A stretch of DNA of 64,000 nt from Candidatus Saganbacteria bacterium CG08_land_8_20_14_0_20_45_16 (GTDB taxonomy: Bacteria > Margulisbacteria > WOR-1 > O2-12-FULL-45-9): contig PEYM01000148.1 in NCBI GenBank assembly GCA_002774365.1, positions 692 to 64,691 of the forward strand, in the 5' to 3' direction. How positions within the stretch are numbered: the stretch's first letter is position 1; every line of letters begins with the position of its first letter. The translations under genes and the position numbers were made by a program. Positions 34,628 through 38,585 of the stretch are shown here, piece after piece. The notes below the pieces were generated by a model, which was not told the DNA's origin, did not search any database, and saw only the letters and a list, made by a program, of their open reading frames with translations.

Positions 34628-35839
34628 ATGCAGGCAAACAAAATCGCAGTGGTGGGGGGCGGGATAAGCGGGCTGGTTACAGCTTACTATCTATTAAAAA
34701 AGGGTTATCAAGTTACCCTCTTTGAAAAAGAAGCAGAGCTTGGTGGTTTAGCCTCTACCTTCCCAGTTAAGGGGACCCGCCTGGAAAAGTTTTACCACCA
34801 CTTTTTTGCCCAAGATACGCTAGCCCTTGAATTGATAGAAGAATTGGGCCTTAAGGATAAATTTTATTGGGCTTTTCCTCGGATGGGCTTTTTTAGCAAG
34901 GGGACAACTTACCCATTTACCACGCCACTAGACCTTTTAGCTTTTCCCCCTCTCTCCTTACCAGAGCGGCTCAAGTTTGGCCTTTTTAGTTTCAAGGTTA
35001 AGCAAGAAACAGATTGGCAGAAACTGGAAACAAAAACAGCTAAGGAGTGGTTGATTGAAAATTTGGGTACAAATATTTATCAAGAGGTTTGGCAGCCGCT
35101 CTTGCGGGCAAAGTTTGCTGAACACGCCGACAAAATCCCTGCTTTTTGGGTTTGGGGGAGGCTCAAAGCAAGAGGAAAATCTCGCTCAGCTTTTGGCTGG
35201 CGGGAAAAACTTGGTTATTTAAAAGGGAGCTATCAAGTCTTAATTGACGCGTTGGCCGCTAAGATTACAGGGCTCGGCGGAGCAATCAAACTCGGCCAAG
35301 AGCTTAAAACCTTTCCCCTCCCTGGCTTTGATCGGACAATTTTGACTATCCCTCAAGTTAGCCAGGACTTTGGTCTTAAATACCTGGGCAATATTTGTTT
35401 GATCATTAAGACCAAACAGCGTTTGTCAAATTATTATTGGCTTAATTTGGCAGATAATAGTATTCCCTTTTGTGTGATTGTTGAGCATAACAATGCTTTT
35501 GATTCCCCGCTTTATCAGGGGGAGCGTTTTCTCTTTCTCTCTAGCTACCTTGACCACCAGAGCGATTTTTGGCAGCTTACCGACCAAGAGCTTTTGACCA
35601 CTTATCTAGCTGGGTTACAGAAGATCTACCCAGCTTTTAAGCGTGAAGCACTCCTTGATTATTATGTTTTTCGAGAAAAGTTTGCGCAACCCTTGCCAAC
35701 TTTGGGCTATTCAAAGAAAGTCCCTCCTTTCAAAATTAACGAAAAACTTTATCTGGTCTCTAATATGCAAATCTATCCAGAAGATCGCGGGATCAATGAT
35801 ACAATTAAATTAATATGCAAATTTATCGAACAGTTCTAA
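34628..35839 (+). CDS. FAD/NAD(P)-binding flavoprotein (amine-oxidase / UDP-galactopyranose-mutase-like)
   Basis: N-terminal dinucleotide fold VVGGGISGLVTAYYL...TLFEKEAELGGLAST. Embedded among glycosyltransferase genes. Confidence 0.6.
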   Translation: MQANKIAVVGGGISGLVTAYYLLKKGYQVTLFEKEAELGGLASTFPVKGTRLEKFYHHFFAQDTLALELIEELGLKDKFYWAFPRMGFFSKGTTYPFTTPLDLLAFPPLSLPERLKFGLFSFKVKQETDWQKLETKTAKEWLIENLGTNIYQEVWQPLLRAKFAEHADKIPAFWVWGRLKARGKSRSAFGWREKLGYLKGSYQVLIDALAAKITGLGGAIKLGQELKTFPLPGFDRTILTIPQVSQDFGLKYLGNICLIIKTKQRLSNYYWLNLADNSIPFCVIVEHNNAFDSPLYQGERFLFLSSYLDHQSDFWQLTDQELLTTYLAGLQKIYPAFKREALLDYYVFREKFAQPLPTLGYSKKVPPFKINEKLYLVSNMQIYPEDRGINDTIKLICKFIEQF

Positions 35840-37251
35840 CTTTAGCCTTAATTTTAGTAGTGCAGGCGGTGCTTTTTCAGCCATATTTAAGCGAGCCGTT
35901 TGAACGCGATGAGGGGGCTTATGCTTACATTGCCCAGCGTCTGTCGTCGGGCGAGCTGCCATATCGAGATAGTTACGATCATAAGCCACCAATGATCTAT
36001 TTTATTTACGCGTCAGTCTTTAAGTTCTTTGGGACCTCAATGGCCGCGATCAGGTCTTTTACCTTGCTTGTTTCGCTGTTAACAACCTTAGCCGTCTTTT
36101 TCTTGGCCTGGCTTATTCTCGGTCGCTTTGGGGCAATTGTTTCTGCTTTGCTTTACGCTTTTTATGCTGGGAATCCTTACATTCAAGGGACTTCTGCTAA
36201 TACTGAGACCTTTATGGTCTTACCAATGGTCCTGTCTTTGGCTTTTTTCTTATTGGCTTTGCGGCGAGAGCAGAAACTCGGCTGGCTCTTTTTAGCTGGT
36301 CTATGTTCTGGCTTAGCCGTGATGATCAAGCAGGTTGCCCTGCTTAATTTTTTGGTTATTCTTGGTTATTACGTTTTTATTTGTCTGCGCCAGCGCAAGG
36401 ATTGGTCAGGGGTTGCGGCGCTACTAATTGGCTTAGCCGTTGTGCCAATGCTGACAGTTGGATATTTTTTCCTTAAGGATGCCTGGTCAGCCTTGCTTCA
36501 TGGCTACCTTTTAGAAAACCTGCTTTATGTCTCGCGCAAGGTTTGGGTCTGGCCGAGGCTTTGGCTGGTGTTACAAGAACTTGGGCTTTTGTGGGGCCTA
36601 TCAGCTCTGGCAATTATGCTTATCTGGTTTAACGAAAAAGAGGATAAATTTAAAATTATTCTAGCTTGGGCCCTGGCCTCGGGTTTAGGGGTTTTTATGG
36701 GACGAGCCTTTTACGGCCACTATTTTATTCAAGTGGTGCCAGCGCTGGCAATTTTAGCGGGCTACAGCCTCTTAAAAATTGCTGGTTCAAATTGGCGCTT
36801 GGTGCTTTTGGCCTTTTTAGCCCTGATCTTTTCCATGGACCTCTTTAGTCGGATCTCTTTTGGCTTATTATCACCTGAACTGATCTCGCAAAAAAAATAT
36901 GGGATCAACAATTTTGTCGTGGCAGGGCAGGTTGCGGAGTTTATCAAGCAAAAAACCCTGCCCAAAGACAGGCTCTTTATTTGGGGGGCAGAGCCCGAGG
37001 TTTATTTTTATAGTCAACGCGCGGCCGCCTCGCACTATATTTATTATTATCCATTACTATACAAAGATAAGAAATCTCAACAAGCCAGGCTTGCTCTGCT
37101 GACAGAATTAAAAGAGGCACCGCCCGAGTATATAATCTGGGTTGAGCCGAGGGTTGTTTATGGTCCACTTTTGAATTATGTTAAAGCTGGTTATAATTAT
37201 CTGGCTAGTTTTGGCCGCTGGCAAATTTGGCGGCGAAAGAGGATTAAGTGA
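35815..37251 (+). CDS. ArnT/PMT-family GT-C glycosyltransferase (GT39/GT83-like)
   Basis: 478 aa. First periplasmic loop has a DEGAY acidic motif and a YDHKPPM motif typical of ArnT/PMT enzymes. About 11 TM helices. Confidence 0.65.
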   Translation: MQIYRTVLTLALILVVQAVLFQPYLSEPFERDEGAYAYIAQRLSSGELPYRDSYDHKPPMIYFIYASVFKFFGTSMAAIRSFTLLVSLLTTLAVFFLAWLILGRFGAIVSALLYAFYAGNPYIQGTSANTETFMVLPMVLSLAFFLLALRREQKLGWLFLAGLCSGLAVMIKQVALLNFLVILGYYVFICLRQRKDWSGVAALLIGLAVVPMLTVGYFFLKDAWSALLHGYLLENLLYVSRKVWVWPRLWLVLQELGLLWGLSALAIMLIWFNEKEDKFKIILAWALASGLGVFMGRAFYGHYFIQVVPALAILAGYSLLKIAGSNWRLVLLAFLALIFSMDLFSRISFGLLSPELISQKKYGINNFVVAGQVAEFIKQKTLPKDRLFIWGAEPEVYFYSQRAAASHYIYYYPLLYKDKKSQQARLALLTELKEAPPEYIIWVEPRVVYGPLLNYVKAGYNYLASFGRWQIWRRKRIK

Positions 37252-37991
37252 ACAAAACGATCGTGGTCATGCCGGCGTACAATGCGGCCAAGACCTTGGC
37301 TAAGACCTTTCAGGACATCCCCAAAGACAAGGTCGCTGAAATTATTTTGGGCGATGATTGCTCAGAGGACCAAACTATCTTGATCGCCCAATCATTGGGG
37401 CTTGAGGTCCTTAAGACCCCGTGCAATCTTGGCTACGGCGGCAACCAAAAAATGCTTTACCAAGAGGCGCTGCGACGCGGGGCCACCATTGTGGTCCTGC
37501 TTCACCCAGATTGGCAATATGACGCTACCAAAATTCCTGAGCTGATCGCACCGATTGCGGCTGGCGAAAAAGATGTTATGTTAGGTTCAAGGATACTTGG
37601 CGGCCGGGCCGGCACGCTAGCTGGCGGCATGCCGCTTTATAAGTACCTGTCCAATCGTTTTCTGACCTTGGTCGAGAATATGACCTTTAACTTCTCTTTG
37701 TCTGAGCTGCATACTGGCTTTCGCGCTTTTAGTGCTCCGGTGCTAAAAAAGGTCAGCTATGAGCTTAATTCCAATGACTTTGTTTTTGATTCTGAGATGT
37801 TAGCCCAGATTGCCGTTCAAAAATTTAGGGTGGGAGAGGTGCCTGTGCCGTGCCGTTATTTTCCAGAAGCTTCAGAAATTAATTTTTGGCGCAGTAGTTG
37901 TTATGGTCTCCAGACCTTGCTGGTCTGTCTGAAGTTCATGTTGCATAAGCTAAAAATAAAAGAGTTGGAGCAATTCATTGCAAAGTGTTAA
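37248..37991 (+). CDS. GT2 glycosyltransferase (dolichyl/polyprenyl-phosphate sugar synthase-like, soluble)
   Basis: 247 aa. GT-A motifs VVMPAYNAAKTL, ILGDDCSED and a DxD-like LHPDWQYD. No TM segments. Confidence 0.8.
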   Translation: MNKTIVVMPAYNAAKTLAKTFQDIPKDKVAEIILGDDCSEDQTILIAQSLGLEVLKTPCNLGYGGNQKMLYQEALRRGATIVVLLHPDWQYDATKIPELIAPIAAGEKDVMLGSRILGGRAGTLAGGMPLYKYLSNRFLTLVENMTFNFSLSELHTGFRAFSAPVLKKVSYELNSNDFVFDSEMLAQIAVQKFRVGEVPVPCRYFPEASEINFWRSSCYGLQTLLVCLKFMLHKLKIKELEQFIAKC

Positions 37992-38003
37992 AATAAAGCG
38001 CAA

Positions 38004-38585
38004 ATGAAGCGAGCAGCCTTTACCTTAATTGAGCTGATCATGGTTGTGGTTTTGATTGGCATTTTGTCAGGGGTAGCGATGATCTCGCTGCGGTCGCAAG
38101 AAACAGTGGCCTTGAGTGCCGCAGCCCAAAAAGTTGTGGTGGACCTTAATTATGCTAGGGGCTCGGCCCTGTCAACGGCATTTTGGTATGGGGTCAGTTT
38201 TGAGGCTGATCCAGCTAATACTTATACTGTTTACTTAGCGAGTAATGAGGTAGTAGTGGCTGACCCGAGCAATTTGGGCAAGCCGTTAGAGGTTAATCTA
38301 GCGGCCCTGTTTAACGGGGTAAGTATTCAATCTGTTACCCTGGCAGGGAGCAATCGAGTGTTTTTTTGTCCTTTAGGAGAGGCTTATGAGGCTAAAGATG
38401 GCAACCAGTTGGCTAATGACGGCGAAATAGTCTTAGCTTATGGTAATCAGACAAAGAGCGTTTTTATTGATCATAATTCTGGGATGATCTCGTTGCAGCC
38501 AGTGGTTGCCGGCACTGGGGAGGGAGAAGGTGAGGGAGCAGGTGAAGGTGGGGGTGGCGGTGGTGGTGGTTGCGGCGCACATTAG
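38004..38585 (+). CDS. Prepilin-type minor pseudopilin, GspH/FimT-like, with Gly/Glu-rich C-terminal tail
   Basis: N-terminal FTLIELIMVVVLIGIL with Glu at +5, and a FimT/GspH-like DLNYAR motif. The last 25 aa are GTGEGEGEGAGEGGGGGGGGCGAH. Confidence 0.7.
   Translation: MKRAAFTLIELIMVVVLIGILSGVAMISLRSQETVALSAAAQKVVVDLNYARGSALSTAFWYGVSFEADPANTYTVYLASNEVVVADPSNLGKPLEVNLAALFNGVSIQSVTLAGSNRVFFCPLGEAYEAKDGNQLANDGEIVLAYGNQTKSVFIDHNSGMISLQPVVAGTGEGEGEGAGEGGGGGGGGCGAH

Follow-up and report, generated by a model that had tools for sequence, protein, structure and literature searches.

What does a pair of glycosyltransferase genes do inside a type IV pilus gene cluster, and are the pilins encoded next to it the molecules that it modifies? 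The question is raised by a stretch of 64,000 nucleotides of contig PEYM01000148.1, from Candidatus Saganbacteria bacterium CG08_land_8_20_14_0_20_45_16 (the whole 64-kb stretch is called the window below), in which genes for a membrane glycosyltransferase of the GT-C type (35815..37251) and for a soluble GT2 enzyme (37248..37991) stand directly before four prepilin-type genes. Both open reading frames (ORFs) were found exactly at the coordinates from which the original prediction had drawn a candidate pilin O-glycosylation module. Of that proposal the enzyme pair held, as did the linkage to pilin genes within the clade of its relatives, although the closest solved relative of the GT-C is ArnT, a lipid A enzyme. 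We conclude with moderate confidence that the type IV pilus cluster incorporates a module for periplasmic glycosylation from a lipid-linked monosaccharide, with pilins as its target. Enzyme families, fold, catalytic motifs, operon structure and conserved pilin linkage are established by the evidence that follows.

A GT-C/GT2 pair within a pilus operon

The GT-C gene lies on the forward strand and encodes 478 aa. Its product matches Pfam PMT_2 with 57.4 bits (cutoff 26.1) and PMT with 43.2 bits (cutoff 22.7), and these were the only Pfam families found at E <= 0.01, with neither Wzy_C nor TPR among them. A hydropathy scan gives about 11 transmembrane (TM) segments. The C-terminal ~100 aa are periplasmic and form a small alpha/beta domain in the AlphaFold2 (AF2) model (pLDDT 95.4). 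The motifs D32-E33-G34-A35-Y36 and Y54-D55-H56-K57-P58-P59-M60 had been taken as signatures of ArnT/PMT-type enzymes, and our results bear this out. Indeed, D32, K57 and P59 are invariant across 40 aligned homologs, and E33, G34, Y36 and D55 are conserved in at least 90% of them. A single-sequence phmmer search of the PDB gave no match, and ArnT was reached only with the profile of the 40 homologs, for which ArnT of Cupriavidus metallidurans (5ezm, E 9e-8) was the sole meaningful match. In this alignment D32/E33 fall on D55/E56 of ArnT, K57-P58-P59 on K85-P-P, E131 on D158, and the invariant Y303 on Y345. The best Foldseek match of the model in the PDB was ArnT as well, in its structure with undecaprenyl phosphate (5f15, E 1.2e-10, TM-scores 0.73/0.66), followed by STT3/AglB/PglB, DPY19, ALG12, AftA and Pmt4. 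By HMM match, by its acidic DE motif in the first periplasmic loop and the Lys for binding of the lipid phosphate, and by its GT-C fold, the catalytic family of the enzyme is ArnT/PMT-type (CAZy GT39/GT83-like).

The GT2 gene, also on the forward strand, encodes a predicted polyprenyl-phosphate monosaccharide synthase of 247 aa and begins with a GTG codon that overlaps the GT-C stop codon as GTGA. The protein matches Pfam Glycos_transf_2 with 62 bits, and the hydropathy scan found no TM segment in it. Its nearest NCBIfam models are PpgS (polyprenyl-phospho-GalNAc synthase), AglJ and a Dol-P-hexose transferase, all far below their cutoffs, and its best PDB match is the Dol-P-Man synthase of P. 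furiosus (5mlz, E 2.7e-4). The proposed pairing of an ArnT/PMT-type GT-C with a soluble GT2 is supported, the GT2 resembling polyprenyl-phosphate-sugar synthases, and the GT2 is predicted to make the lipid-linked donor for the GT-C. Together the two enzymes would be a portable unit that makes and transfers a lipid-linked monosaccharide, following the logic of three-component systems (PMC11127046). Below, GT2sol stands for the set of TM-less orthologs of this GT2.

The gene order in the window is FAD oxidoreductase, GT-C, GT2, four prepilin-type genes, a PilM-PilN fusion, a PilO-like gene, a gene in the position of PilP, and a secretin gene. Consecutive genes are tightly spaced: the oxidoreductase overlaps the GT-C by 25 nt, the GT-C overlaps the GT2 by 4 nt, and the GT2 stop codon (TAA, 37989-37991) is followed 12 nt further on by the ATG of the first pilin at 38004, a gap too short for any terminator. 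A promoter and terminator scan of 25000..44990 yielded numerous consensus matches, none of them informative. The secretin gene is the last of the operon, since gpsA and plsY, which come after it, lie on the minus strand. The oxidoreductase gene (34628..35839) was not included in the original prediction; it is part of the same unit and is translationally coupled to the GT-C via the 25-nt overlap.

The description of four prepilin-type genes behind the 12-nt gap was correct, in that three match N_methyl / TIGR02532 and the fourth begins MNKGFTIL, without Glu5. The first (38004..38585) encodes a GspH/FimU-like minor pilin, recognised by Pfam N_methyl, by TIGR01708 (gspH, E 1.2e-9, below cutoff) and by ortholog alignment. 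The second (38602..38997) encodes a PilV/GspI-like minor pilin (N_methyl 29.7 bits, weak gspI and pilV matches) with orthologs at the same position in seven loci, and the third (38998..39459) a minor pilin matched by N_methyl and TIGR02532 that aligns with its orthologs. The fourth (39461..40852) encodes a large PilX/GspK-like minor pilin, classed by its N-terminus; it has no Pfam match, and its ortholog in locus L006 carries PilX_N (weak) and DUF7305. There follow the PilM-PilN fusion (40898..42559; PilM_2 E 3.4e-34, orthologs with PilM_2 and PilN), the PilO-like protein (42571..43095), tied by phmmer to orthologs that match T2SSM and PilO (weak), and a 167-aa protein (43103..43606) that belongs to no assigned family and is placed by its position between pilO and the secretin gene. 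Its ortholog keeps this position in L002, L004, L006 and L092, the L006 copy having weak T2SSC matches. The PilQ-like secretin (43603..44874) closes the series, with orthologs at E 1e-179 that carry Secretin, Secretin_N and GspD_N0. All these genes are on the forward strand.

Two peculiarities of the first pilin may be recorded here. Its prepilin cleavage motif carries Ala at position -1 instead of Gly, and its C-terminus (~38500..38585) is a low-complexity tail rich in Gly and Glu, GTGEGEGEGAGEGGGGGGGGCGAH, which none of the six orthologs has. The tail was considered as a shared glycosylation tract and ruled out, as it is not conserved among the orthologs.

Pilin linkage across the GT-C clade

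A first point against tying the enzyme pair to the pilins is that the window contains at least eight GT-C-type genes, further PMT_2 genes at 49883 and 54749 included. The closeness of one GT-C to pilin genes in a single genome therefore means little, and the linkage has to be tested by comparison. The loci of relatives used for this carry labels (L001, L002 and so on). A metagenome scan added mostly soil relatives of ~30% identity, and among the matches listed L092 and L100 were informative.

The closest homologs of the GT-C, at 35-48% identity, bear Candidatus Saganbacteria or Margulisiibacteriota labels, and in a rough neighbour-joining tree of 85 relatives the pilin-linked GT-Cs form one clade that is mostly of these two groups. 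Pilin genes lie at most three genes from the GT-C, on the same strand, in 13 of the 14 informative loci of the clade. The original prediction had named a lack of such co-occurrence in related genomes as evidence that would tell against it; within the clade the co-occurrence is strong. The order GT-C, GT2sol, four pilins, pilMN is kept in L001, L002, L004, L006, L010, L090 and L092, and where the contig allows it is continued there by pilO, the 167-aa gene and the secretin gene. In the first six of these loci the first pilin gene either overlaps the GT2 gene or starts no more than 21 nt after it, and in L092 a 1.3-kb stretch lies between the two.

Upstream, the relatives extend the picture to the major pilin, one to four genes downstream of which their GT-C sits. 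The arrangement pilC-pilA-YfhO precedes the GT-C in L006, L007, L011, L031, L089 and L090. L090 holds a complete cluster, running from a response regulator gene through pilB, pilC, a 126-aa major pilin, YfhO, GT-C, GT2 and the minor pilins to pilMN, pilO, an unassigned 157-aa gene and the secretin gene. L006 has a similar order from pilC on, with two YfhO genes and additional PMT_2 and GT2 genes between the major pilin and the GT-C. L089, L007 and L011 are split clusters, in which pilB...pilC, pilA, YfhO, YfhO, GT2, GT-C are followed by unrelated genes (proS, murC), and in L007 and L011 the oxidoreductase joins this major-pilin half. When the supercluster is split, the GT-C stays with the major-pilin half (L007, L011, L089) or with the minor-pilin half (the window, L001, L002, L004). 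Minor pseudopilins had been proposed as the partners of the enzyme in place of a major pilin; this describes the layout of the window, but in relatives the GT-C also adjoins the major pilin. Within one clade the unit is now integral to type IV pilus clusters, and it has stayed beside pilins through several rearrangements.

The relatives also share, between pilC and the major pilin, a conserved membrane protein of 139-145 aa with apparently four TM segments (L006 506..934; L007 2844..3269; L011 2514..2939; L031 957..1394; L089 4001..4429 and 4448..4867). Searches with the L007 and L031 copies found no Pfam or NCBIfam family, and the window has no gene at the corresponding position. It may serve the pilus as an accessory protein, or it may be a candidate flippase of the lipid-linked sugar.

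The genes 5' of the GT-C differ from locus to locus. They are the oxidoreductase and a glycosylation island in the window. In L001 they are a gene of the reversibly-glycosylated-polypeptide (RGP) type, a GT2, a carbamoyltransferase, a PMT and a radical SAM enzyme, and in L004 GT9 and methyltransferase genes that are divergently transcribed. In L004, therefore, a self-contained operon of GT-C, GT2, pilins, pilMN, pilO and secretin begins with the GT-C.

The linkage is also found under other phylum labels. In L025, from a Desulfobacteraceae-labelled metagenome-assembled genome (MAG), pilC, a homologous pilin, YfhO and the GT-C are followed by a bona fide UDP-galactopyranose mutase (UGM; GLF 4e-71). 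This pilC - pilin - YfhO - PMT_2 GT-C - UGM cassette occupies 4848..12695 of CAYFXH010000085.1, and its pilin is homologous (1e-15) to the major pilins of Saganbacteria. L025 suggests a mobile or ancient pilin-glycosylation cassette, the sugar of which may be galactofuranose (Galf). In L031, which bears an Omnitrophota label, pilC stands with two pilins and three YfhO genes, and the contig ends at the GT-C.

Pilins and other candidate acceptors

What we infer are the identity of the acceptor, the flipping step and the nature of the sugar. In the mechanism that we propose, the TM-less GT2 would work on the cytoplasmic side of the membrane and charge undecaprenyl phosphate with one sugar taken from a nucleotide sugar. 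The lipid-linked sugar would then be flipped across, and in the periplasm the ArnT-like GT-C would pass the sugar on, most probably to Ser/Thr residues of pilins. The coupled FAD oxidoreductase probably modifies the donor or the lipid of the donor. The minor pilins would be co-transcribed with the enzymes, and the major pilin would be encoded elsewhere in the genome. Pilins are the most economical reading of the acceptor, to which we give about an even chance, and the relatives suggest that the minor pilins are no likelier a target than the major pilin. Major pilins of relatives have a variable loop rich in Ser/Thr/Gly/Ala and a Ser/Thr-containing C-terminus, features that are suggestive only.

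Several further observations weigh against pilins as acceptor. A search for Ser/Thr-rich surface loops in the pseudopilins had been suggested, and the ortholog alignment of the minor pilins contains no conspicuous conserved Ser/Thr-rich tract or loop. No candidate flippase, GtrA-like or ArnE/F-like, was found in the 64-kb window, where the small multi-TM ORFs are plsY and a spurious one that overlaps. A large part of the synteny is that of a single lineage, in which inheritance rather than selection could account for it, and phylum assignments such as those of L025 and L031 are unverified MAG binning labels. L012, a clade member in an Elusimicrobiota-labelled MAG, has no pilin genes within 10 kb. 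Furthermore, many pairs of GT-C and GT2 in other phyla have no pilins beside them, and the module is therefore not intrinsically pilin-specific.

These pilin-free pairs deserve a closer description. About 140 more distant GT-C relatives (~30% identity, from many phyla) show no conserved pilin linkage, and many of them retain the GT2sol ortholog (E ~1e-67) adjoining the GT-C. The pairs occur in Planctomycetota, Bacteroidota, Verrucomicrobiota, Acidobacteriota and Gammaproteobacteria, and those of Phycisphaerae and Gammaproteobacteria adjoin further PMT_2 and PMT_2+TPR paralogs. Their conserved neighbours are PMT_2 paralogs or lineage-specific housekeeping genes (polA), and give no clue to the acceptor. 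Loci of Phycisphaerae, Gammaproteobacteria and Verrucomicrobiota (L032, L067, L069, L075, L084, L076, L078, L082) show GT2sol clustered with GT-C paralogs, two or three in number. One such paralog is a PMT_2 protein with C-terminal TPR repeats, a TMTC/TfpW-like architecture that is typical of protein O-glycosyltransferases.

In the window itself, the pair closes, on the 3' side, an array of lipid-linked-sugar enzymes that extends over about 12 kb of the same strand. The array includes an upstream glycosylation island (25874..34621, forward strand), in which Pfam and NCBIfam identify a PTPS_related membrane protein, a GT2 and two DUF2079 proteins, one of them bearing CBM_4_9/PA14-like C-terminal domains; a 586-aa membrane protein of the island matched no family in either database. 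The island GT2 is GtrB/PgfS-like, with TM segments (PgfS match E 1.9e-84, below cutoff). The island is probably a separate lipid-linked-sugar system. Its gene content is different in every relative examined (L001, L002, L004, L006), so the spot beside the pilus genes is hypervariable. At its 5' edge, 23031..24890 (forward strand) encodes a secreted protein of 619 aa, an obvious candidate substrate for O-glycosylation, in which very long poly-Thr/Ser tracts (~residues 30-140) precede DUF5122 beta-propeller repeats.

Both the array and the pilin-free pairs fit an explanation in which the pair and the other local GT-Cs glycosylate the envelope or proteins in general, acting on other periplasmic or surface targets such as this Thr-rich protein, and in which the position beside the pilins reflects inherited synteny or co-regulation with surface structures instead of specificity for the substrate. 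L012 fits it too, as do the streptococcal GtrB/PgtC2 enzymes, which modify many proteins (PMC11092751). What speaks against it is the junction itself: the GT-C-to-pilin junction is constant among relatives whose island varies; in L004 the island is on the opposite strand, with the pilus operon starting at the GT-C; the GT-C remains with one pilin block or the other after rearrangement; and the same cassette is found in L025. We regard general glycosylation as unlikely on balance, if the most serious competitor to pilin glycosylation.

The resemblance to ArnT opens another explanation, namely that the GT2 makes an undecaprenyl-phosphate (Und-P) sugar which the GT-C adds to lipid A phosphates or to core sugars of lipopolysaccharide (LPS), as in ArnC/ArnT, LgmA/LgmB, FlmF/FlmK or RgtE/RgtA-D. 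ArnT, the closest solved homolog by sequence and by fold, modifies lipid A, and its catalytic residues are conserved here. In addition, LptB and LptF/G are encoded in the window, so that the organism probably makes LPS and is likely a diderm, and the pair is widespread in diderm phyla. The role of ArnT and the presence of Lpt genes also count against pilins as acceptor. However, identity to ArnT is only 16-18%, neither ArnT nor any other NCBIfam equivalog was matched at E <= 0.01, and no genes like arnA, arnB, arnD, arnE or arnF adjoin the pair, the window lacking small multi-TM ArnE/F-like ORFs altogether. Lipid A or core modification would moreover leave the consistent embedding in pilus clusters unexplained, and we judge it improbable.

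Donor sugar and known systems

The oxidoreductase offers a hint about the donor of the pilin-linked pair. It is a FAD-dependent enzyme of the PRK07233 type (forward strand; NCBIfam NF005560, 425.8 bits against a cutoff of 252; Pfam Amino_oxidase and NAD_binding_8) whose AF2 model (pLDDT 93.5) has a fold like that of protoporphyrinogen oxidase (PPO) and phytoene desaturase (PDS). The best Foldseek matches were PPO 2ivd and rice PDS 5mog (TM-scores up to 0.83), with UGMs at 0.71-0.76. Examined as a UGM-like enzyme, the protein has no GLF domain in Pfam, and the UGM folds are nearly as close to it as PPO and PDS. The same oxidoreductase lies directly 5' of the GT-C in L002, L007, L010, L011 and L100. 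Mutase-type genes occur near other GT-Cs of the clade, with a UGM beside it in L025, a UGM 8 kb away in L012 and an RGP beside it in L001. Because a UGM, an RGP or a FAD oxidoreductase is found near the GT-C, the donor sugar might be a furanose or otherwise redox-modified.

Three kb beyond the pilus operon, 47477..52702 (forward strand) encodes a candidate polyprenyl-phospho-pentofuranose system, preceded by efp (46488..47042) and accB (47045..47476). Its members are a UbiA-family protein that matches the NCBIfam equivalog for decaprenyl-phosphate phosphoribosyltransferase (293 bits against a cutoff of 234), a 521-aa FAD oxidoreductase of the PRK07208 type (759 bits against a cutoff of 418), a GT-C (571-aa PMT_2) and an SDR epimerase/dehydratase. 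In composition they are similar to the DPPRS + epimerase + GT-C systems (PMC11127046) and to the pathway that supplies the TfpW donor, and a UbiA gene follows efp-accB in L004/L005 as well. Further on, 54749..56176 (forward strand) encodes a 475-aa PMT_2-type GT-C with a weak match to the LA_3751/LA_3752 putative glycosyltransferase family.

This wealth of enzymes could also be taken to mean that YfhO, PTPS_related, DUF2079 and PMT_2 proteins jointly assemble or decorate an arabinogalactan-like or exopolysaccharide-like glycan, possibly containing furanose, with which the pilus interacts or is co-expressed. The GT-C genes are indeed clustered, some with CBM_4_9/PA14-like domains, and the mutase-type genes near clade members (UGM in L025 and L012, RGP in L001) and the cluster with the decaprenyl-phosphate phosphoribosyltransferase-like protein would suit such a glycan. 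Polymer building is nevertheless quite improbable in our view: genes for a polymerase, for export and for an initiating phosphoglycosyl transferase were not seen in the block, a GT-C with a GT2 is the minimal module for the transfer of a single sugar, and the linkage is specifically to pilin genes.

How does a pilin-directed pair compare with what is known? Pilin glycosylation is known mainly from Proteobacteria, via PglL/TfpO-type oligosaccharyltransferases and one GT-C, TfpW. The former, PilO(TfpO)/PglL, are Wzy_C/WaaL-like O-oligosaccharyltransferases that use oligosaccharide donors linked to undecaprenyl diphosphate (Und-PP); they glycosylate pilins and are often encoded beside pilA. The original prediction placed them in the same family as the GT-C, which proved wrong: they differ from it in family (Wzy_C, not matched by the window GT-C) and in donor type. 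The cyanobacterial pilin modifier Ogt of Synechococcus was likewise ruled out as a relative, being a GT41 enzyme.

TfpW, of P. aeruginosa group IV (Pa5196/PA7), is a GT-C whose gene comes after pilA and which adds D-arabinofuranose (D-Araf) to pilin from a polyprenyl-phosphate donor; it has 646 aa with a C-terminal periplasmic TPR domain and has been modelled on ArnT (bioRxiv 10.1101/2020.04.19.049825). As an analogue, set against the window by this published description, it stands in part. Like TfpW, the window enzyme is a membrane GT-C with pilin genes as neighbours; both lead to ArnT, and the GT-C of relatives lies downstream of pilA as tfpW does, the window GT-C being one gene away from the minor pilins. 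On the other hand, TfpW also polymerises Araf and its donor genes (DPPRS, DprE1/E2, GtrA-like) are unlinked, whereas the window GT-C has 478 aa without the TPR domain, has its own GT2 donor synthase in the operon and precedes minor pilins, and YfhO-type GT-Cs accompany its relatives.

Three other systems share parts of the design. With ArnT (PDB 5ezm/5f15) and ArnC the pair has in common the DE(G) and KPP loop motifs and the logic of an Und-P-sugar synthase of the GT2 type working with a GT-C; the low identity, the lack of an NCBIfam equivalog and a pilus operon in place of LPS modification genes set it apart. In three-component systems (GtrA/GtrB/Gtr*; Mann & Whitfield 2016; PMC11127046) a GT2 likewise loads a single sugar onto polyprenyl phosphate, from which a GT-C passes it on outside the cytoplasm, but the window lacks a GtrA-type flippase, adds a FAD oxidoreductase and has as its likely acceptor a protein rather than O-antigen. 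In streptococci, GtrB and the YfhO-family PgtC2 O-glucosylate Ser/Thr-rich regions of proteins, and both this system and Pgf (PgfS/PgfM1) combine an Und-P-sugar synthase of the GT2 type with a GT-C for extracytoplasmic protein O-glycosylation (PMC11092751). YfhO is also the GT-C type found beside pilA in relatives, and the upstream TM-bearing GT2 of the window is PgfS-like; the window itself has no YfhO gene. The streptococcal systems differ in that they work in monoderm hosts, on Ser/Thr-rich disordered regions of many proteins and with no link to pili (PMC11092751).

We best file the locus as a variant of GT-C-mediated pilin glycosylation that is ArnT-like and has its donor synthase in the operon. 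A broader picture can be offered tentatively, and we hold it less likely than not: pilins may be glycosylated in the periplasm from undecaprenyl-phosphate-monosaccharide donors by two GT-C families, YfhO-type near pilA and ArnT-like near the minor pilins, in more than one lineage and possibly with a furanose sugar, and the island may be hypervariable because the surface of the pilus diversifies, phages being one possible pressure, with P. aeruginosa as a precedent. In P. aeruginosa, pilin glycosylation affects pilus function and phage susceptibility (bioRxiv 10.1101/150227).

The conserved embedding of the pair in pilus clusters of uncultivated lineages is noteworthy to specialists, without being paradigm-changing. 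The module is compact (pilin, GT2 and GT-C), and is therefore testable by reconstitution and possibly useful for glycoengineering. If pilins are indeed its acceptor, the pair would represent a second, architecturally different GT-C route to pilin glycosylation, ArnT-like, with its donor synthase in the pilus operon and YfhO partners in relatives. This route would be present in uncultivated lineages related to Cyanobacteria, and apparently also in Desulfobacteraceae- and Omnitrophota-labelled MAGs, and it would mean that protein-directed enzymes can hide behind an ArnT-like annotation.

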